Of a DNA stretch of 64,000 nt, positions 1 to 47,454 are shown piece after piece. Source of the DNA: a virus (lineage: Duplodnaviria > Heunggongvirae > Uroviricota > Caudoviricetes). Each line of letters begins with the position of its first letter. Within the stretch, counting starts at the first letter, position 1. The position numbers were made by a program, and so were the translations under genes. Under the pieces are notes generated by a model, which had not been told where the DNA came from, did not search any database, and was given only the letters and a program-made list of their open reading frames with translations. The DNA lies in IMG/VR virus record IMGVR_UViG_3300010218_000003, positions 2,124-66,123 of that record; one strand, written 5' to 3'.

Positions 1-783
1 GATGGGGAGGACGACAGCCTTGGCATCGTCGCGGAGCGCTATAAGGTCGTTCAGAACGAAGATCTTTTCGGCTTCGGTGACGGCATCCTCGCTGGTGGTG
101 GCACGTGGGAGACTGCCGGTTCTATCAAGGATGGTACGCAGGTCTTCGGATCTCTGCGTATCGGCCGTGAGGTGCTGGTGGGTGACGAGGATGTCACGAA
201 CATGTATCTCCTCGTGAACACCTCTCACGACGGTTCCCTTGCGGTACAGGCGAGCGTCACTCCGGTCCGTGTCGTGTGTCAGAACACCCTGAACTTCGCA
301 CTCCGTAACGGTGTGAAGCAGACGTTCAAGATGCGCCACACTCAGACCATCGAGGGTCGCATGGCTGCCGCGCGTGAGGCGCTGAACATCACCTTCGCGT
401 ACGCGGATGAGTTCGAGCGTGAGATGAACGAACTGTTCCGCACTCAGTGCACGAAGGATCAGTTCGATGAGCTGATCAGCACGGTCTACGGTGAGCGTCC
501 GGCCGAGAACGTCAAGGGTTCTCAGGTCAAGTGGGAGAACAAGCGTGACCTGCTGATGGGCATCTTCACCGACACGGGCGACGGTCCCAAGACCACTCAG
601 TCTCTGGCCGGTACCATGGCCGGTGCGCTGAATGCTCTGACGGAGCGTCTGGACTGGTACCGCATGCCCCGTAAGGGCGAGGTTGACAACCTGTTCGCGG
701 CTGCGAGTGGCTTCGACCCGGTTATCAACTCCGAGAAGAACAAGATCCGTAAGGCTGTCCTGAGCATGTCTCTGGCTGCCTGA
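1..783 (+). CDS. DUF932/TIGR03299-like phage-plasmid protein (5' partial; frame open from nt 1)
   Basis: frame 1 open from window start to TGA 781-783; NSHDGS-containing region; plus-strand codon usage. Confidence 0.6.
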   Translation, partial: DGEDDSLGIVAERYKVVQNEDLFGFGDGILAGGGTWETAGSIKDGTQVFGSLRIGREVLVGDEDVTNMYLLVNTSHDGSLAVQASVTPVRVVCQNTLNFALRNGVKQTFKMRHTQTIEGRMAAAREALNITFAYADEFEREMNELFRTQCTKDQFDELISTVYGERPAENVKGSQVKWENKRDLLMGIFTDTGDGPKTTQSLAGTMAGALNALTERLDWYRMPRKGEVDNLFAAASGFDPVINSEKNKIRKAVLSMSLAA

Positions 784-785
784 GT

Positions 786-816
786 CAACGGCCCCCGCTT
801 CGGCGGGGGCTTTTGG
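786..816 (+). terminator. rho-independent terminator
   Basis: GCCCCCGC-TTCG-GCGGGGGC hairpin followed by TTTT directly after stop codon. Confidence 0.7.
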
Positions 817-893
817 CCGCCCCGGTTATTTTGGCCCGGTGGTAGACATGTCCCTTGTACTCTGTTAGACTAGTATCAACGAAGGGACAGAAC

Positions 894-1097
894 ATGACTC
901 GCACTGTGACTGTGATCGTTCTCGAAGAGGGTATCCGAAGGGAGCTGGAGTTCACAGGCATCATGGACAATGGCATCGAGTTCGATGTCAAGACTGGCAC
1001 TCTCACTCTGTGGGAGGAGAAGGGAAAGCTTCTGAACTCCCGTTGGGTCGTGCCGTTCGTCTCGCACTACAACGTCACTGACGAATTGCAGTGGTGA
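894..1097 (+). CDS. hypothetical protein (68 aa)
   Basis: ATG at 894 with GAAGGGA RBS 7 nt upstream; inside longer listed ORF 855..1097. Confidence 0.45.
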   Translation: MTRTVTVIVLEEGIRRELEFTGIMDNGIEFDVKTGTLTLWEEKGKLLNSRWVVPFVSHYNVTDELQW

Positions 1098-1431
1098 TTG
1101 ACACAGAGCAATGACCTTGTTACACTATTGTAGTGAGGTCATAAGGTGTGTTCCTGGGTCCCCTGTCAGTCCATTCGGGCAAGGGGTTAAATAGCAGAAG
1201 GTCGGCTGCAACCCAGGGACCTTTCAATTTCTAACCGCCCCGGTTCATTGCTTACCCTAACTAACATGATGACTGTACATCTAGATTTTGATTTGTCCGT
1301 CATGTCCGATTTTTCGCCCTTTACGATAGGGGCCAAAATCCCCGGAAGATCTTGAAGCGCATTTACGAATGGGCCGAAATTCCCCGGATGATTTTCAATT
1401 TCAAATTCAAGACAGTTAGTTCGGTCTGTCT

Positions 1432-1605
1432 TATATAAGACATGAAACAAAGCCTCCCGTCTTTATTGGGAGGCTTCTTCTGTTTTACGATATAAGACAT
1501 AGGATACACAAGGATGATTGGCCGGTGGCATTAGGTGTCCTTGTACTATATAAGACATAGAGAACCAACCAATACTCCACCGGGTCAATTCTACATATAA
1601 GACAT
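1432..1605. repeat. four direct repeats (T)ATATAAGACAT(A)G spaced ~57 bp (iteron-like)
   Basis: copies at 1432, 1489, 1547, 1595; noncoding region. Confidence 0.7.
1449..1490 (+). terminator. hairpin plus T-rich tail (possible terminator)
   Basis: GCCTCCC-N9-GGGAGGC followed by TTCTTCTGTTTT. Confidence 0.45.
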
Positions 1606-2261
1606 AGCACAATCAATCTGTCTTGGCTGACTAAGCAGGCTGTATAGCCATGGCTGCATAATCTGGCTGTCTATCATGGCTGACTTACGAATTGAAGGCA
1701 AAATAGGCATGCATGGCTATGATTCTAAGGTTTATCTGGCATGCCCTTTACGAATGCATCAAAAAATGTGCAGAAATGCTGTGTTTTCGCAGGTTTTGGG
1801 CCGATTATTGCCAGTTTTCATAGGTTTTGGGGCTATTTTTGATTGTTTTAAGAGGCCGTCTGAGCCCTTGAATCGACATTTTATTAGGCTGGCTGCATAT
1901 GTTGGCTGTGAATCGAAGGCTGGAACCCCATTCTGACCTTAGAAATGAAGATATGGCTTACGATCTGCCTTCGATTTCCTGCACCATTACACACTAACTT
2001 TTCGTTAGTATCTCTATATCAAGATAATTACTAATCTCAGAAAGTTATCCACAGGTAAGCACACAGGTTGTGGATAACTATGTCTCGATGTCAAGATACT
2101 TTGATGATTCAAGCCTGCTACAGCACTGTTCATACGTCTTCTATCAAGGCTTCTGACGTGTCTACGTTCGCTTCTCGTAATGCTTTAATTGATTGGTGTC
2201 TCTGAGCACCATGTCTTTATTACAAAGGCATACAGAGGTTTCTGTCTGCTCTGTCTTATCT

Positions 2262-14054: not shown

Positions 14055-14273
14055 TTAGTCATCAATATACTTGAGATCGCTTACGTTGTCAACACAGGCG
14101 TCCTCACCCCAGATCTTGCCAGAAGCAATACACTTCTGAGCAGTCTGACTCTTGAGATAATCACTGTAGTTGACGCTGAATCCGACTGCCGCAAACAATG
14201 CAATGAACACTGATGCGACAATGAGAGCGACCTTTACGTCATTCTTATCCATCACCACTCTCCAGTGGTGCAC
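14055..14273 (-). CDS. membrane protein
   Basis: 72 aa; TM helix. Confidence 0.45.
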   Translation of the reverse strand: MHHWRVVMDKNDVKVALIVASVFIALFAAVGFSVNYSDYLKSQTAQKCIASGKIWGEDACVDNVSDLKYIDD

Positions 14274-14446
14274 ATCTTGTTGATGCGCTCATTCAGTGCA
14301 TCCATTTGCTCAATGGTTGCATTTGGATTCTGTGAAGAAAACCAAATCATTTCCTTTGCTGACTTCTCGATCCACTCATATGGAGCATCAGGGTGAACAA
14401 GGGCGATGCTTGCCGCAGCAATATCAATGAGACTAGGCATTTGCAA
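14252..14446 (-). CDS. hypothetical protein
   Basis: 64 aa. Confidence 0.4.
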   Translation of the reverse strand: MQMPSLIDIAAASIALVHPDAPYEWIEKSAKEMIWFSSQNPNATIEQMDALNERINKMCTTGEW

Positions 14447-14918
14447 TCCAATCTACTCGCTTTTGGTGAACGGCACAAACAAGGACTCTACCTCGCGCCG
14501 GTCGTCGGTAACGTGTTCCAGCCGTATGACCAGTAGGACAAACAGCCTTCCACTTAGGCGTAGCAGGCTTATAGTTTTCACAGGTATTACCCGTGCAACC
14601 AATCTCAATTGCCTTAGCTCGCCAAACTGCATTGTGACCATGCCCCGGCCCAACCAGAGCGTGTGCAATTTCATGTCTGATTACGTTGTCTACCTGAGAC
14701 TCAGTGAGATTCGGAGTGCAGGTCTTTGACAGCTTAATCATCTTCTGAACGTGGTAAGTGGTTCCGTATGTCTTCACCATACGATTCCACCCAAATTCCC
14801 ACCCTCGTGCGAGCAGGCCATAATCCCACATTAGATCGCGCGCAAGGCGCTCGGCTCGAATGAGATTCACTTGAAACCCTTCGGTCGATGGAGTACCCAC
14901 TAAGAGAATTGAACTCAT
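14433..14918 (-). CDS. SprT-like zinc metalloprotease domain protein
   Basis: HEIAH (HExxH) motif; 161 aa. Confidence 0.65.
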   Translation of the reverse strand: MSSILLVGTPSTEGFQVNLIRAERLARDLMWDYGLLARGWEFGWNRMVKTYGTTYHVQKMIKLSKTCTPNLTESQVDNVIRHEIAHALVGPGHGHNAVWRAKAIEIGCTGNTCENYKPATPKWKAVCPTGHTAGTRYRRPARGRVLVCAVHQKRVDWIANA

Positions 14919-38118: not shown

Positions 38119-38357
38119 CAGTCCTCCAGCTTATAGAACTTTCGGTATTGCCACGGAGTGGCTACCGTTCTTCTACCGTACTTTGATTTGGGTCCGTTGT
38201 CAACACGAACTGAAATGACTCCGGAGTCCTGGCTGATCTTAACTATTGTTCCTGAGTCTAGCATGCCTCCCTTGGAGTTTCCTCCTTGAGGCCGCGCGAA
38301 AATGACACGATCGCCCACATTAAGTGGACGACCAGTCATGTCAGTAAACGTTTGCAT
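38118..38357 (-). CDS. small KOW-like protein
   Basis: 79 aa; NVGDRVIF...GTIVKI. Confidence 0.5.
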   Translation of the reverse strand: MQTFTDMTGRPLNVGDRVIFARPQGGNSKGGMLDSGTIVKISQDSGVISVRVDNGPKSKYGRRTVATPWQYRKFYKLED

Positions 38358-38658
38358 ATCCTCTGTTTACGACCTTTGAAATTGTAGTTGCTGATACACC
38401 ATATTGACTTGCTATCTCGGTGTAAGGAGTATTCCATTCTGCAAGAAGCCTGACCTCAGTTACCTGAGCATCTGTTAGCTTCCTTAGCTGAACTGTCTTT
38501 GAGCGAAGCTCTCGACCCTCGTTAAAGTCGTTCTTTTTCCGTCTGGCCATCGAGAGCCTGCAATCACGACACCACTTGTAGAACTTGGCAGGATTAGTGA
38601 TCTGTCTGCCAAACTCATCAAGTTCCTTGTCCTTACCGCAGATTGGGCATTCCTTCAT
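38341..38658 (-). CDS. zinc-ribbon + helix-turn-helix DNA-binding protein
   Basis: CPICGK...CRDC; C-terminal HTH YGVSATTISKVV. Confidence 0.55.
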   Translation of the reverse strand: MKECPICGKDKELDEFGRQITNPAKFYKWCRDCRLSMARRKKNDFNEGRELRSKTVQLRKLTDAQVTEVRLLAEWNTPYTEIASQYGVSATTISKVVNRGYANVY

Positions 38659-39610: not shown

Positions 39611-41239
39611 TCAGATTCGACCTGCGGAGAAGTTGGCTAGGACACGTGGAGCGTTGCTATCAAAGCCAACGAAGTCCATCATTCCACTATCGCTTGGGTC
39701 AGCAATAGTGAATGGCGTTGAAGCGACTCCTAGAACAGCAAGTCGTGCATCAATACCCATGTCCTTACGGTACTTCTTTAGAGCCTGGAATGGGTGAATC
39801 TTGCCAGCCCACGTCTCGTTATCAGTGATAACGACGAAGGTGTCAACCTCAATTCCATTCTCAAGAGCCCACGTCATTGGCAGTGAGCAGTCTGTACCGC
39901 CCCAGTTTACTGAACGCATTGCACTCATTGCCTGAGCAAGAGAGCTGCGACCAGTAATCTTTAGTTCGGTCATACCGCTGTCACGCCAGTTGTACCCCAC
40001 GCTGGAGAAGCCGCGAAGAATGTGAGCTGGCTCTGTACGCGCAATGGTCATCGCCATAGCACCAGCAACTTGTGCACAGCTTAGGTCGAGACCCATAGCC
40101 ATAGCACTCATTGATCCGGAACAGTCGATGGCTAGCATCGTCCTCTTACCGGCTGGCTCAATGGTCTTGAATGACTTGTGGAACGCCTCATCGATTGCAT
40201 CGACAATAACGGCCTCAGTCTCCCAGTTCTTTACACGTCCGCCGTAGTAGTTCTTTCGATCCACCTGGCCTTCTGCGTAAACAACAGCAGCGTTGAGGAA
40301 GTTAATTGGGTGCAGTCGAGACTGACGAATCAACTGTTCATTCGTTAGCTGACCAGCGAAGCTTGCAGCAAACTGCATGTCCTTGAAAGCACCAATACGC
40401 GCGAGGCGAGTGATGTTTCGAACAGCAGCCTGACCACGAAGCTGACCATTAGCGAAGAGCCGCTTCCAGACACTAGCATCCGTGAGGAACTGTGTTGGAA
40501 TTGTCTCCCAAGAAAGCATCTCGTAATCCCGCAGAACTGCGTGAACAGCCTCTACGGACTCCGCCTTCTGCATAAGCTTGAAGCCCTCGATAACCCGAAG
40601 GTCATCTACAGCGTCATGCTCCTTGCCTAGGACGAAATCAGCAACAGACGTGTTAACGTTCTGTGGGTGAGCCTTTCGCATTACGTCTCGCAGCGTCCAG
40701 GTGTTTCCACCGAACTTACGTGAACGATACTTGACTGCCTGGTAAGCGAGCTTATCAGCGTCCTTATCGAACCAGCTAGCTACGATCTCACGCTTTGCGC
40801 GACCCCATCCGCCAAGCTCGTTAAGATAGTTAACTACCTCGTAGAGGTGAGTAGCAGTCCTAACGACCTTGTTGAATACAGCCTTGACCGCCTGCTTATC
40901 CTTGCCGTTGACAATGACAGAGGCTAGAGCGAACAGGGCTGGACTCTGCTTATACGCACGACCATTGACAGATACATCAACGATTGTGTTCAGTACAGAG
41001 GCTTCGTCACGAGCAATGAACTCATTGAGGAAGCTTACGTTGCTCTGGGTGTGGTTAACCTCAGATACGTAATACGTTCCTCCGTCAGTTCCCAGAATCA
41101 GGAAGCGCTCAAGGCGAGACTGATCAGAAACCTGGAAGACGAATCCACCAGCGTTGTTCTTGACCTGCCCGTCCTTAGCCTTCATGGACTGAGAAGTCTT
41201 GTTGGTTGCCTTTGCGGCATTAGTTAGTGCGTTGGACAT
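39611..41239 (-). CDS. rsr: Ro60/Rsr ortholog (TROVE domain + C-terminal vWA/MIDAS)
   Basis: 542 aa; N-terminal TROVE-like region; C-terminal DCSGSMS MIDAS, same TROVE+vWA architecture as Ro60. Confidence 0.75.
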   Translation of the reverse strand: MSNALTNAAKATNKTSQSMKAKDGQVKNNAGGFVFQVSDQSRLERFLILGTDGGTYYVSEVNHTQSNVSFLNEFIARDEASVLNTIVDVSVNGRAYKQSPALFALASVIVNGKDKQAVKAVFNKVVRTATHLYEVVNYLNELGGWGRAKREIVASWFDKDADKLAYQAVKYRSRKFGGNTWTLRDVMRKAHPQNVNTSVADFVLGKEHDAVDDLRVIEGFKLMQKAESVEAVHAVLRDYEMLSWETIPTQFLTDASVWKRLFANGQLRGQAAVRNITRLARIGAFKDMQFAASFAGQLTNEQLIRQSRLHPINFLNAAVVYAEGQVDRKNYYGGRVKNWETEAVIVDAIDEAFHKSFKTIEPAGKRTMLAIDCSGSMSAMAMGLDLSCAQVAGAMAMTIARTEPAHILRGFSSVGYNWRDSGMTELKITGRSSLAQAMSAMRSVNWGGTDCSLPMTWALENGIEVDTFVVITDNETWAGKIHPFQALKKYRKDMGIDARLAVLGVASTPFTIADPSDSGMMDFVGFDSNAPRVLANFSAGRI

Positions 41240-41759: not shown

Positions 41760-41830
41760 CAATCCACGGATTCGAACCGTGTTTCGGTCTGTTTCATAGA
41801 CAGATAACCGATAGTCATTCGACCCAAAAG
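41760..41830 (-). ncRNA. tRNA-like element B: GGGTCGAATG core, D-loop-like CGGTTATC, GTCT-ATGAAAC-AGAC hairpin, perfect T-arm CACGG-TTCGAAT-CCGTG, no acceptor pairing
   Basis: immediately 3' of tRNA-Asp on minus strand. Confidence 0.35.
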
Positions 41831-41901
41831 TCCCGACGAAGGGAATCGAACCCTCGATAATACGCTGACAACGTATCGTGTTTCCATTACACTACGCCGG
41901 G
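41831..41901 (-). tRNA. tRNA-Asp (anticodon GTC)
   Basis: acceptor CCCGGCG/CGTCGGG, D GTGT/ACAC, perfect stem ATACG/CGTAT, loop TTGTCAG. Confidence 0.85.
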
Positions 41902-42566: not shown

Positions 42567-42597
42567 TAAACCTCGCTATTATCTTGTTGTTTTGAAG

Positions 42598-42674
42598 CGA
42601 CCCCTACGGGAATCGAACCCGCCTGATGTCTGCCTTGACAGGGCAGTGACCACAACCTAGCAGTCCCAGAGGCC
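42598..42674 (-). tRNA. tRNA-Asp (anticodon GTC), second copy
   Basis: acceptor GGCCTCT/AGGGGTC (GU pairs), perfect stem CTGCC/GGCAG, loop CTGTCAA. Confidence 0.7.
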
Positions 42675-42912: not shown

Positions 42913-43164
42913 TTAAGATCCAACTGGTGCTGACTGATAGCCTGCCCAGTAATCGTCATCTTCTAGCCATACTACACGAGTGTTGCCGTTGTGTCCATGA
43001 ATCGCTTCCAGAGTCTCAATGTCTGGATACAAGGCGACTGATGTCCACTGAGACAACCATGACATGGCACACTGCCCGTTGTCAAATTCTACGCCCTGAG
43101 CGACGATGCCTGTACCGCTGACTCCTGATGAGTCGATGTCTCTATGTAGTTCGAACAGTCTCAT
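42913..43164 (-). CDS. hypothetical protein
   Basis: 83 aa. Confidence 0.5.
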   Translation of the reverse strand: MRLFELHRDIDSSGVSGTGIVAQGVEFDNGQCAMSWLSQWTSVALYPDIETLEAIHGHNGNTRVVWLEDDDYWAGYQSAPVGS

Positions 43165-43350
43165 ATATACTATCCTATATTATTATCTAGTATCGATTTC
43201 CAAACCGATTTCACTTACTCTTTTTCTTTTCTCTTCCCAGTATAATTTACCTTAACAGGTCTCTGTCGTTCTGTCAACTCCCTCCTTGTATCCTTTAGAT
43301 ATATGGAGAACCGCAAAGACGTAACCCCTCCGCACCGGGCCGCCGCGCCC

Positions 43351-43490
43351 GTGACAAATGAAAAAAGTGTCACGTGACAGAGTGACACCGTGACATTCTT
43401 CAATGCGTGACAACGTGACAGAGGCCGTGACAGAAGTGTCACTGTCACCATGACATGTCACCTCGATGTCATGACAGTCGTGACATGACA
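43351..43490. repeat. dense array of GTGACA/TGTCAC hexamers (at least 8 direct + 3 inverted in 140 bp), several at 8-bp spacing
   Basis: copies at 43351,43374,43382,43390,43407,43415,43427,43480 and inverted at 43437,43443,43456. Confidence 0.75.
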
Positions 43491-43500
43491 AAAGCCACCC

Positions 43501-43893
43501 TCAGATGTAGAGGATGGCTAGTGTATTGATAGCAATATGAATAGTGTTGTCAGCGATGATCATCAGCCACGTGGTAAGCCACACTGGTGCGTCATCTCTG
43601 TACCCCGTCTTGCTACCTTCGGCCCAGGAGTACCTAAACTCGCGCGGAGCCAATTGGTTTTTTGCCCAGACTACATGACGAGCCAGGCGATAATGGTCAA
43701 TTACGATATGCGTTCCGATGATGACTAGCAAGGCTAGCCATGACTGCGTGACAAAAAGAAATGGAGCACCATATGTCACTCCGTGAAGAATGGCCGGTGC
43801 CCATCTCTTTGTCTTCAATTGAGCCATCCAATCCGTCTGGATTAGATAGTCACCAACAAAGTGCAGTAGAACGCCGATGAGTACGGCATTCAC
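43501..43893 (-). CDS. integral membrane protein
   Basis: 130 aa, multiple TM. Confidence 0.55.
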   Translation of the reverse strand: MNAVLIGVLLHFVGDYLIQTDWMAQLKTKRWAPAILHGVTYGAPFLFVTQSWLALLVIIGTHIVIDHYRLARHVVWAKNQLAPREFRYSWAEGSKTGYRDDAPVWLTTWLMIIADNTIHIAINTLAILYI

Positions 43894-45427: not shown

Positions 45428-45643
45428 TCAACCGCTGACGCTGTTGAAGATACTGACGATGGCGTCCCATGCACCGTTGAACAGGTTAAAAACGCTGTCT
45501 ACGGTTTGCGGGAATAGCTTGGCGACAATGAGTCCACCGAGAATTCCCCAAATTAGATCTGGCCACTGCCTACCCTTCTTCTTCACTAGATAGAGAGTGA
45601 CCAGAACCCAAAGGAACACCGGGCCAACCATCAACATTTCCAT
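45428..45643 (-). CDS. small membrane protein
   Basis: 71 aa. Confidence 0.45.
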   Translation of the reverse strand: MEMLMVGPVFLWVLVTLYLVKKKGRQWPDLIWGILGGLIVAKLFPQTVDSVFNLFNGAWDAIVSIFNSVSG

Positions 45644-47454
45644 TACTGCTCCAGTTGCTTCTCGATGTTCTTCCTAAAGTAACCGGCAACCTTGTACTTA
45701 GAGCCTTCCCATACTCGGCTCTCCCGACCGGTGTTACCTAGAATCTCATGTAGCTGACGAGCTGTCAAGATGTGTCCGTAGCCTCGGAGTTCCTTGGTCA
45801 AGATGCTAGCTGGCAGCCAGTCATGTTCATCAAAGTTCTCAAAGATGTCCAGAACGTCTTCGAGCAGTCTTCTGTCTGTTACATCTGTGACTGTTATATC
45901 TAGATAGGTATCCTTATCTAGTTCAACAATCCCTTCACCGGCTCGTTCATCACCGATTTCAATTGCCTCTTCTGGATCAATTGGGAATGCCTTGTATAGA
46001 TATGGCTCTCTTGAGCCACCACCCATAATGTAGCACTTACCTGCGTCCTCTGGATCTTCTCCAGATGCAGGGTGAAGCTTATCTGGCCTCCAGCCTTGGC
46101 TGAGCGCTCCCTCTCCAAATACCAAAGGAACGTCGGCGTGACGTGAGGCGAACATTACCTTAATTGATACGGCGTCTGCAATAGCTGCTCCAAGCTGATC
46201 CTTGGTTGCCTGCTGTGCAGCTAGAATGACTGTGATTGCTGACTTTCTACCATTACGGATGATGTCAACAGCCAACTCCTTGCACTTCTTGTTTAGCTGA
46301 ATGAACTCGTCAATGAAGATTACTAGCGCTGGATGCTCTCTGGTTGGCTGCCAGTTATCACCCATACGTAGCTTGGTTAGCTTCTTTGCACGAATCTTAG
46401 TGTACTCCAGAGCCTCGGTTAGCATTTCTTCAATTTCAGCTTCTGTTCTACCTCTACGTGCAACGGCATCACCAAATACTTCAAGACCATTTCCACCGGG
46501 ATCAATGTCCCAAGTTACACAGTCACGACAGCTAGTAGTGATGTCTGCTAGTGTTCTCATGAACATAGACTTACCACCACCAGGCGCGGCGATAATGACT
46601 GCGTGATTTCTCAATAGAGACATCTCAAGGAACTGTCCGTCCATTCGCTGAGCAACCCTGTACTTGTTCTTAATTGAACGAGAAAGAGGCTCTACTCTTC
46701 CCTGTCCAGTCATATCAGCAAATGGGTCAGACTGCATAAGACGAATGATTACTTCGGCTCTGAAACGAGTGGCTGCTACAAGCATTCCATCAGCAGGAAG
46801 TCTCATCAAAGTTTCCATATCCTTGGTCTTAGCCATTACATCATCAGGCGTTCCCTTACGAAGAATGACTGGGAATTCCCAACCCCAATTGTATCGAGTT
46901 GGTTCAAGGATAGTCCTCGGTGTGATTCCTTCTGCTAGCAATGCTCTGCGAAGACACTCTGTTGCTTCTTCTCTATTACGAGCATCAGCAATTGGGAATG
47001 GAGCCATAGCGTCCTCTTCCTGATCTTCTGCTTCCTCACCAAAGATGTAAGTCTTGTTAGTTACTCCTACTATGGCAAAGAGGATCAAGAGGCTTACTGC
47101 CACCGCGCCAAACGTCACGGCTCCGAATGAACTAGTGAGCCATGCTGTGACGGCTAGAGAGGCCGCTACGCAAATGAAGAATCTCTTCCTGCGTGGTTGT
47201 GCGTGCGTCTGTTGTTCCATTCGCAGCTTGCGAGCCTTCTCATGATTGCCTTCGTGTCGAGCCTTAGCAATCTCAATCTTATAGTCTGCAACAGTCAACC
47301 AGTCAACGAGATTCTTCATACTTAGGCGTGCCCCTCCTGAGACATGCTTAAGCGCTCCCTGACTGGAAAGCCTAAAAGACCTAGAGCTAAGCTCTAGGTC
47401 TGAGTCAGGGATTTTCACAAGTTCTTTTGAATGCTTCTTGTCGAAATCCACCAT
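45643..47454 (-). CDS. P-loop DNA-translocase-like ATPase (FtsK/HerA/TraG superfamily) with N-terminal TM segment
   Basis: Walker A AAPGGGKSMFMRT, Walker B VIFIDEF; 603 aa. Confidence 0.65.
   Translation of the reverse strand: MVDFDKKHSKELVKIPDSDLELSSRSFRLSSQGALKHVSGGARLSMKNLVDWLTVADYKIEIAKARHEGNHEKARKLRMEQQTHAQPRRKRFFICVAASLAVTAWLTSSFGAVTFGAVAVSLLILFAIVGVTNKTYIFGEEAEDQEEDAMAPFPIADARNREEATECLRRALLAEGITPRTILEPTRYNWGWEFPVILRKGTPDDVMAKTKDMETLMRLPADGMLVAATRFRAEVIIRLMQSDPFADMTGQGRVEPLSRSIKNKYRVAQRMDGQFLEMSLLRNHAVIIAAPGGGKSMFMRTLADITTSCRDCVTWDIDPGGNGLEVFGDAVARRGRTEAEIEEMLTEALEYTKIRAKKLTKLRMGDNWQPTREHPALVIFIDEFIQLNKKCKELAVDIIRNGRKSAITVILAAQQATKDQLGAAIADAVSIKVMFASRHADVPLVFGEGALSQGWRPDKLHPASGEDPEDAGKCYIMGGGSREPYLYKAFPIDPEEAIEIGDERAGEGIVELDKDTYLDITVTDVTDRRLLEDVLDIFENFDEHDWLPASILTKELRGYGHILTARQLHEILGNTGRESRVWEGSKYKVAGYFRKNIEKQLEQ

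Follow-up and report, generated by a model that had tools for sequence, protein, structure and literature searches.

A conserved TGACA array in cluster BE Streptomyces phages is a candidate binding-site cluster for a DUF2637 membrane protein

Positions 43351-43491 of the DNA analysed here, a 64,000-nt window that covers positions 2,124 to 66,123 of the Caudoviricetes record IMGVR_UViG_3300010218_000003 in IMG/VR, carry a dense array of the short motif TGACA in both orientations. This array is a genuine, conserved, non-coding cis-element of a large lytic Streptomyces phage. Among the explanations considered, we favour, with confidence only slightly above even, the one in which the phage's DUF2637 membrane protein binds the clustered sites of the array through its C-terminal domain and so would pin the DNA to the membrane. 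The pairing of DUF2637 membrane proteins with arrays of sites is previously undescribed, although the general combination of an element-encoded binder with clustered sites is already known. An anonymous 335-bp gap between genes thus becomes a defined cis-element with a named candidate partner.

Exact GTGACA or TGTCAC hexamers occur 12 times in 43351-43491, against 0.088 expected from the rest of the window (Poisson P ~4e-22, with the remainder of the window as background). An earlier model reading of the letters alone, hereafter the sequence-only reading, had reported such a cluster with at least eight direct and three inverted copies; the cluster is real and the eight direct copies stand (plus strand, at 43351, 43374, 43382, 43390, 43407, 43415, 43427 and 43480), whereas the inverted copies number four (minus strand, at 43368, 43437, 43443 and 43456). 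The exact 8-bp steps that it noted, at 43374/43382/43390 and 43407/43415, are also borne out. When degenerate ATGACA/TGTCAT copies are included, the array holds 16 TGACA/TGTCA cores in 139 bp at a mean spacing of 8.9 bp, 11 of them pointing one way and 5 the other, with irregular spacing of 5-17 bp and an extended consensus of CGTGACA. Elsewhere in the 64 kb, a 150-bp stretch contains at most two GTGACA/TGTCAC hexamers, and no other clustered 6-mer reaches six copies per 150 bp anywhere in the window. The proposed comparison with background therefore leaves the array as the only such cluster in the window. Two palindromes lie within it, TGTCACGTGACA (43368-43379) and TGACATGTCA (43451-43460). 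The first can form a terminator-like hairpin followed by a T-run on the minus strand (43366-43389), which is probably incidental because the palindrome is missing in the related phages KentuckyRacer and BoomerJR.

The window matches the cluster BE Streptomyces phages and belongs to their subcluster BE2, which corresponds to Karimacvirus (BE1 being Samistivirus). These phages are presumed virulent and have genomes of ~131-134 kb, with terminal repeats of ~11 kb, ~40 tRNAs and one tmRNA. Conservation in relatives had been named as a check, and the array is present at this locus in all BE phages examined; the nearest relative, LukeCage, is 96% identical across the array's intergenic region. Among five aligned BE2 phages, the motif copies are invariant and the intervening spacers are variable, with indels of 1, 2, 5 and 11 nt. 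Motif-level conservation of this kind across the whole phage group points to a non-coding array of the protein-binding type, as the sequence-only reading supposed.

The same alignments bear on the proposal that the gap makes a product of its own, either a small protein (from open reading frames (ORFs) 43215-43451 or 43252-43491) or a structured small RNA. A minority of related GenBank records do label the 335-bp gap as a coding sequence (CDS) for a 'hypothetical protein', and inverted motif copies could form hairpins. However, the longest stop-free stretch in the gap shifts in frame and length between relatives, to the point that the window and BoomerJR differ in frame, and BoomerJR gp123, an annotated CDS, matches the window ORF at its ends only, its middle being in another frame. 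No frame is kept among the relatives, the indels are not multiples of three, and Rfam searches of the whole window and of the region gave no match at the array. Moreover, a terminator on one side and a promoter on the other make substantial transcription of the array improbable, and the same motif array occurs inside unrelated coding sequences. A gene product is thus scarcely credible, the two ORFs are best regarded as the artefacts they were suspected to be, and by these comparisons the array is non-coding.

In BE1 phages, the array at the equivalent locus has GGACA intermixed with GTGACA. One BE1 subgroup (Jay2Jay, Samisti12 and others) seemingly lacks the array when searched by BLAST. In Jay2Jay, the gap is filled by gene 121, which encodes a 650-amino-acid PhoD-like hydrolase (L014 499-2451), and the promoter and downstream gene are kept. 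This hydrolase gene contains 20 KGACA/TGTCM copies in 270 bp, in all three codon phases and both orientations, against 4.2-4.7 +/- 1.8 expected from synonymous resampling or permutation (maximum 11 in 5000). The copies overlie the DNA for the folded N-terminal domain of the hydrolase, ~1 kb from the promoter, and make the gene a strong case of overlapping constraints. Because they exceed synonymous resampling inside a coding gene, the signal of the array is selected at the DNA level, with adjacency to the promoter dispensable.

A second array links the motif to a specific gene. When record positions 1-100,000 of the BE2 phage CeilingFan were scanned, one other cluster was found at 14153-14565, with 30 TGACA cores, mainly TGTCACG on the plus strand of the record. 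It spans the 3' half of gene 33 and extends beyond the stop codon. The product of this gene (gp33 in CeilingFan, gp32 in StarPlatinum) is a DUF2637 protein (phrog_10376) of unknown function. In each BE relative examined for one, this second array is larger than the window-type array and lies ~64 kb away from it: LukeCage, StarPlatinum, Yaboi and Wofford (all BE2) have 22-26 GTGACA copies in the DUF2637 gene, and Mildred21 and Jay2Jay (BE1) have ~40 KGACA copies. Two more distant metagenomic phages likewise have an array in this gene. Furthermore, the distal and DUF2637-gene arrays of one lineage use the same motif mixture, namely TGACA only, with 0 GGACA, in 6/6 BE2 arrays and TGACA plus GGACA at ~1:1 in 7/7 BE1 arrays. 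This parallel change in the make-up of both arrays implies one reader for both. In CeilingFan, 73-76% of the copies in each array share one orientation on the genome plus strand. The candidate partner named by the sequence-only reading, the product of 38341..38658, fares less well: it combines a Zn-ribbon with a weak helix-turn-helix (HTH) and is unlinked to the motif, which is tracked by the DUF2637 gene instead. Its Cys pattern loosely resembles that of SpdA2, and phmmer finds no similarity between the two.

The association extends beyond phages to their satellites. MulchRoom and MiniFlayer, satellites of BE phages, encode their own capsid and terminase and have no replication genes (PMC10690885). 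The 'membrane protein' common to both is a homologue of gp33, and its gene is one of only two non-structural genes that they share. Each satellite has an array in the 3' half of this gene, made of CGACA (25 copies) in MulchRoom and TGCGA (21 copies) in MiniFlayer. Helper-type arrays, sought in the satellites as a test of an origin function, were not found, a result that is uninformative given that the satellites have their own module. MiniFlayer also carries four copies of ACAGTGTCTGTCCT inside gene 13, a 368-amino-acid hypothetical gene (L015 12337-12410); this distinct second set of repeats could be the satellite's own replication site.

Homologues that are ~50% identical are found in Streptomyces chromosomes, within integrated MulchRoom-like elements with the order integrase, HTH regulator, Lsr2, DUF2637, terminase, portal, scaffold and capsid, and their arrays consist of GGACA/AGACA or GAGACA. 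In several of these chromosomes, the capsid-forming satellites are integrated beside a glutamine synthetase gene (L141, L142 and L144) and share the order integrase, HTH_31, DUF6879, Lsr2, DUF2637 and terminase. A viral contig of 35% G+C has an AAGACA array. Among plasmids, pNO33 has 27 copies of GGCACA within and past the DUF2637 gene against 0.9 expected, and another has 33 copies of CGCTCA against 0.7 expected. The pNO33 copies span 2 kb and reach into the next gene, which encodes an alanine-zipper coiled-coil protein; just after the DUF2637 gene, three direct copies are followed by three inverted ones in intergenic DNA (L167 2203-2275). In one plasmid, the DUF2637 gene is flanked by a GntR regulator and an FtsK/SpoIIIE-like gene, a classic Streptomyces transfer layout, and two other 'plasmids' are phage-like. 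A scan of a genome collection for gp33 relatives yielded one locus only.

The array-bearing set therefore comprises five BE2 and two BE1 phages, two phages known from metagenomes, both satellites, five elements of integrated or viral type and two of the plasmids. Within this set, the array lies in or after the 3' half of the DUF2637 gene, as judged in relatives, the gene itself being outside the window. Embedded arrays exceeded synonymous-codon shuffles in 4/4 cases tested.

The DUF2637 protein has a layout that would suit such a role. In an AlphaFold model of the protein built from 40 homologues, four long hydrophobic helices, predicted to be membrane helices, are followed by further helices up to residue 179. 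Residues 185-239 have a predicted local distance difference test score (pLDDT) <50, as expected of a disordered linker, and are encoded by the array DNA. The C-terminal domain forms three helices (pLDDT ~88), and does so again when modelled alone. Its nearest Foldseek neighbours, none of them significant, are HTH or winged-helix DNA binders (MuA I-beta, Rex, small terminase, SETMAR and CENP-B). The last helix reads T-[IVL]-N-K-x-x-S-R in every lineage with a GACA motif core, and the residues preceding it vary with the motif: P-A/V/M-N with T/G-GACA, K/I-G with A/G-GACA, and R-S with CGACA. MiniFlayer, with its unrelated TGCGA motif, has a different last helix. Qualitatively, this link between helix and motif is the pattern expected of a reader and its site, and is in part phylogenetic.

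We infer from these observations that the C-terminal domain is the reader, that it tethers DNA to the membrane, and that the tethering serves a purpose in DNA handling. The window array would be a distal binding locus and the array in the DUF2637 gene a 'home' array. The predicted HTH-like C-terminal domains of many membrane-anchored copies would reach out via linkers of ~60-70 residues and occupy the 16 sites, one per ~9 bp, so that a stretch of DNA would be held at the cytoplasmic membrane and the array could act as a cis-acting DNA-handling site of centromere or clt type. One possible purpose is the organisation of replication at the membrane, which overlaps with an origin; such an organiser would account for the retention of the module by satellites without replication genes. 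Another is the presentation of DNA to an FtsK/TraB-like translocase encoded nearby, by analogy with the TraB/Spd spreading apparatus. Consistent with an element-encoded reader, the motifs differ between satellite and helper. Several points weigh against this explanation. For the C-terminal domain, Pfam gave no match and Foldseek no significant structural one (best E 3.6), and the qualitative helix-motif link is partly confounded by shared ancestry. No copy of the DUF2637 candidate is encoded in the window, and the link is made through relatives with 90-96% identity. Among the plasmid homologues, one (L166) lacks a clear array. In the literature, we found no characterised precedent for a membrane-anchored, sequence-specific array binder, and no description of DUF2637 function or of this array.

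A classical replication origin is the strongest rival: a minority possibility, though a serious one. Here the arrays would be iterons on which an initiator assembles and opens nearby DNA. The DUF2637 protein might itself be the initiator, organising the replisome from the membrane, or the role might fall to a soluble protein such as the HTH protein whose gene lies upstream of that for the DnaB-like helicase, and the two arrays might be two origins or an origin and an enhancer, comparable to oriL/oriR of SPP1 or ori/crr of P4. The iteron-like architecture fits, as does the location of one array within the gene of its presumed binder, like lambda ori in gene O. Both satellites lack replication genes yet retain the gene-plus-array module, and the specificities of helper and satellite differ as those of incompatible replicons do. 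A scan of IMG/VR for triple CGTGACA returned >120 unrelated hits, which is no surprise given how widespread iterons of any sequence are; the commonest class was iterons in the replication protein O gene of lambdoid coliphages, and no BE gene co-occurred with the arrays found. However, the 5-17 bp spacing and mixed orientations show no helical phasing. The AT-rich stretch 90-190 bp from the window array, which might suit an origin, is the leader of a promoter, and in Jay2Jay the array is ~1 kb from that AT-rich promoter region. Cumulative GC skew continues past 43.4 kb without a turn, which carries little weight where transcription is unidirectional, and searches of the neighbouring genes and gp33 revealed no known initiator domain. 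The module also occurs on conjugative-type plasmids that presumably have their own replicons, once beside a GntR regulator and a TraB-like gene, and the satellites have no helper-type array on which the helper's reader could fire them. Resemblance to ParB/parS sites or DnaA boxes was considered and rejected by eye, as the motifs do not fit. Among the functions offered by the sequence-only reading, centromere-like iterons or an origin come closest, and tethering by the DUF2637 protein, as the best reading, is of that general kind.

The surroundings of the array (Table 1) bear on whether it is an operator. GenBank records of these phages run in the opposite direction to the window, whose genes are on the minus strand. 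Along that strand, the DUF3307 gene and an intrinsic terminator are followed by the array, and beyond a G+C-rich spacer come the promoter, an AT-rich leader that contains a palindrome, and an 83-amino-acid gene. The two flanking genes are thus those described beforehand, a membrane-protein gene and the gene at 42913..43164. On the gene strand, the terminator bounds the array upstream, and all relatives compared retain it.

Table 1. Features at and around the TGACA array (window coordinates)
Feature	Position	Strand	Remarks
Array of TGACA/TGTCA	43351..43491	none	16 cores, 12 exact GTGACA/TGTCAC; consensus CGTGACA
DUF3307 membrane protein gene	43501..43893	-	Upstream neighbour of the array; Pfam match
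Intrinsic terminator hairpin, AGCCATCCTC...GAGGGTGGCT then TTTTG	43493..43519	-	10-pair stem; ends the DUF3307 gene
G+C-rich spacer, conserved	43318..43350	none	Separates the array from the promoter region
Predicted Sigma-70/HrdB-type promoter, TTGACA-17-TAAGGT	43249..43277	-	Hexamers conserved, spacer diverged
AT-rich 5' leader with polypurine run GGGAAGAGAAAAGAAAAAGAG and palindrome 43192-43209	43165..43248	-	Sequence comparison
83-amino-acid gene, function unknown, phrog_7499	42913..43164	-	First gene past the promoter; retained in Jay2Jay
FtsK/TraB-like DNA translocase gene	45643..47454	-	2.1 kb upstream of the array

The sequence-only reading had pointed to an AT-rich, promoter-like stretch beside the array. 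A predicted promoter is indeed adjacent, with its -35 hexamer TTGACA at 43277-43272 and -10 hexamer TAAGGT at 43254-43249 separated by 17 nt on the minus strand, but the AT-rich segment itself is the 5' leader downstream of it. A consensus promoter scanner did not call TTGACA-17-TAAGGT. We infer it from conservation as the promoter of 42913-43164 and the genes downstream: the hexamers are the same in BE1 and BE2 despite a differing spacer, and Jay2Jay has the form TTGACA-17-TACGGT. Within the leader, the palindrome is ATCGATTTCCAAACCGAT in the window, and relatives have ATCGATACCCGTATCGAT, ATCGATTTGAAGATCGAT, AACCGGTTTCTAACCGGTT or AGAACTGATTCTAAATCAGTTCT at the same spot. Because both arms change in step, this covariation suggests an RNA hairpin, or else a site that binds a dimer and differs in sequence between lineages. 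Downstream of the arrays, a polypurine tract was considered as a shared feature and dropped, since it reflects the general purine richness of coding strands.

An operator or upstream regulatory array, at which a phage regulator would repress, activate or silence this promoter, was among the earlier suggestions. Ribbon-helix-helix (RHH) regulators such as omega and MetJ use arrays of short direct and inverted repeats, and the array does follow a terminator and immediately precede a conserved promoter. The distances argue otherwise. The array ends 74 bp upstream of the -35 hexamer (span 74-214 bp) and overlaps neither hexamer, and in Jay2Jay-type phages an intact promoter has the array ~1 kb upstream within a gene. 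In addition, the larger array is placed towards the 3' end of a gene, in its second half, rather than at a promoter, 16-45 sites would be excessive for an operator, and a Pfam search of the neighbouring genes gave DUF3307 as the sole match, with no adjacent RHH or HTH gene. Owing mainly to the distance from the promoter and the Jay2Jay arrangement, an operator is quite unlikely.

The translocase gene upstream raises another alternative, in which the array is a clt-like site read directly by the FtsK/TraB-like translocase (45643-47454) as it pumps phage DNA across septa. This protein has an N-terminal membrane segment, an ATPase domain and a winged-helix-like C-terminal tail, and it is homologous to Tra of pIJ101 (24% identity over 257 amino acids, E 3e-6). 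TraB of Streptomyces plasmids recognises direct 8-bp TRS repeats in clt (PMC4447253), and some motif copies here are at 8-bp spacing. This register is only partly conserved, however, and the orientations are mixed. Satellites and integrated elements have arrays and no translocase gene, with motifs unlike those of the helper. Because the motif tracks the DUF2637 gene in such elements, direct reading by the translocase is very unlikely, and any functional tie between translocase and array is tentative.

It is highly improbable that the array is instead an sps-like site, bound by a SpdA-type or host protein, with the motif as a half-site of the plasmid palindrome sps, CGTCACGTGACG. The resemblance is striking: the central 10 bp of sps recur at positions 43369-43378 (GTCACGTGAC), its half-site agrees with the consensus CGTGAC, and sps, like the arrays here, is embedded in coding DNA. 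Nevertheless, the window copy (43368-43379) matches only 10/12 positions of CGTCACGTGACG, the full palindrome is missing in KentuckyRacer and BoomerJR, and half of the motifs in BE1 arrays are GGACA. Searches with phmmer detected no SpdA homologue in either the window or CeilingFan 1-100 kb (best E 0.64), and the same 6-7-mer occurs in unrelated coliphage origin iterons, so a short-motif match is not diagnostic. The likeness is probably a coincidence of a short motif.

If the DUF2637 protein does bind these arrays, the DNA that encodes its linker would double as an array of the protein's own binding sites. Regardless of function, site arrays prove to accompany DUF2637 (phrog_10376) in phages, satellites and plasmids of Streptomyces, and they illustrate clearly how a DNA signal can be overprinted on coding sequence, both in the linker of the presumed binder and in the folded hydrolase domain of Jay2Jay. 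They also bear on the exploitation of helpers by MulchRoom and MiniFlayer, each with a private specificity. A more far-reaching extension, which we consider speculative and unlikely to hold, is that one undescribed DNA-tethering module is common to Streptomyces mobile DNA of every kind, from lytic BE phages and their satellites to integrated elements, phage-plasmids and plasmids of the conjugative type, and that in the phage it acts together with a TraB-like translocase to move or position phage genomes in compartmented hyphae. If true, this would amount to a conjugation-like spread of lytic phage DNA, and private modules would let satellites ride the same machinery. Should the module prove to organise an origin or to spread DNA, it would make a side of Streptomyces phage biology that is still untouched accessible to experiment.

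Other features of the window were noted in passing. ARAGORN calls a 78-nt 'tRNA-Asp(gtc)' at 42597-42674 on the minus strand, which is also annotated in relatives, and a canonical tRNA-Asp(gtc) lies at 41830-41901. The odd tRNA fails the Rfam tRNA model, its best Rfam match being tRNA-Sec at 25.4 bits, under the threshold, and it folds as a cloverleaf with an upstream hairpin (z = -0.76). Because it sits near a Ro/TROVE protein gene (39611-41239), ~1.4 kb upstream of it, it might pair with Ro as a tRNA-like or Y-RNA-like molecule. GC skew is positive in window 1-2000 only and negative throughout the remainder; by its position, this segment presumably marks the inner boundary of the right terminal repeat, at which genes change direction.

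Among known systems, the closest in setting are the spreading functions of Streptomyces plasmids. The palindrome sps is bound by SpdA and encodes SRDD/E in coding DNA (PMC4170104), and SpdA/sps shares with the phage array the host genus, the mobile-element setting and a GTCAC/GTGAC core. The coding imprint is SRDD/E at sps and SRDK, RDK or VT at the phage arrays. However, SpdA is a small soluble protein whose 12-bp palindrome occurs in 1-3 copies, whereas the phages have 16-45 half-sites of a lineage-variable motif. TraB/clt and Spd likewise form a membrane-located DNA-handling machine with a cis repeat locus, and the phage has a TraB-like translocase near its array, but TRS are direct 8-mers read by the translocase itself and the phage motif follows the DUF2637 gene. 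Phage-borne Spd-like membrane proteins have been suggested to spread phage DNA (PMC4447253); gp33 has no detectable similarity to SpdB of pIJ101.

Replication origins offer a second comparison. Lambda ori in gene O and the lambdoid O-gene arrays are also clustered short repeats inside the gene of the presumed binder, one lambdoid class uses CGTGACA, and P4 crr and SPP1 oriR provide a second site at a distance, as seen here. The BE arrays differ from O-gene iterons in that the presumed binder is an integral membrane protein without an initiator domain, and in that 16-45 sites of irregular spacing and mixed orientation fill the region coding for a disordered linker.

Centromere arrays, such as the omega heptads of pSM19035, ParR/parC and ParG, are closely packed units of 6-8 bp that point either way, and a small DNA-binding module occupies each unit. 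They resemble the array in these respects, except that here the presumed reader is membrane-anchored and the phage is lytic (PMC10690885). No partition NTPase of ParA or ParM type and no actin-like partner is annotated in CeilingFan 1-100 kb or among the neighbours of the array, and the sole ParB-related entry in CeilingFan 1-100 kb is a 'ParB-like nuclease domain' protein in the terminal repeat. For the tethering itself, a parallel exists in Bacillus phage phi29, whose protein p16.7 has an N-terminal membrane anchor and a small helical C-terminal DNA-binding domain, and holds phage DNA at the membrane. It binds DNA without sequence specificity and has no cognate arrays. Although p16.7 and the DUF2637 protein have no sequence relationship, they share the layout of a membrane anchor followed by a C-terminal domain.

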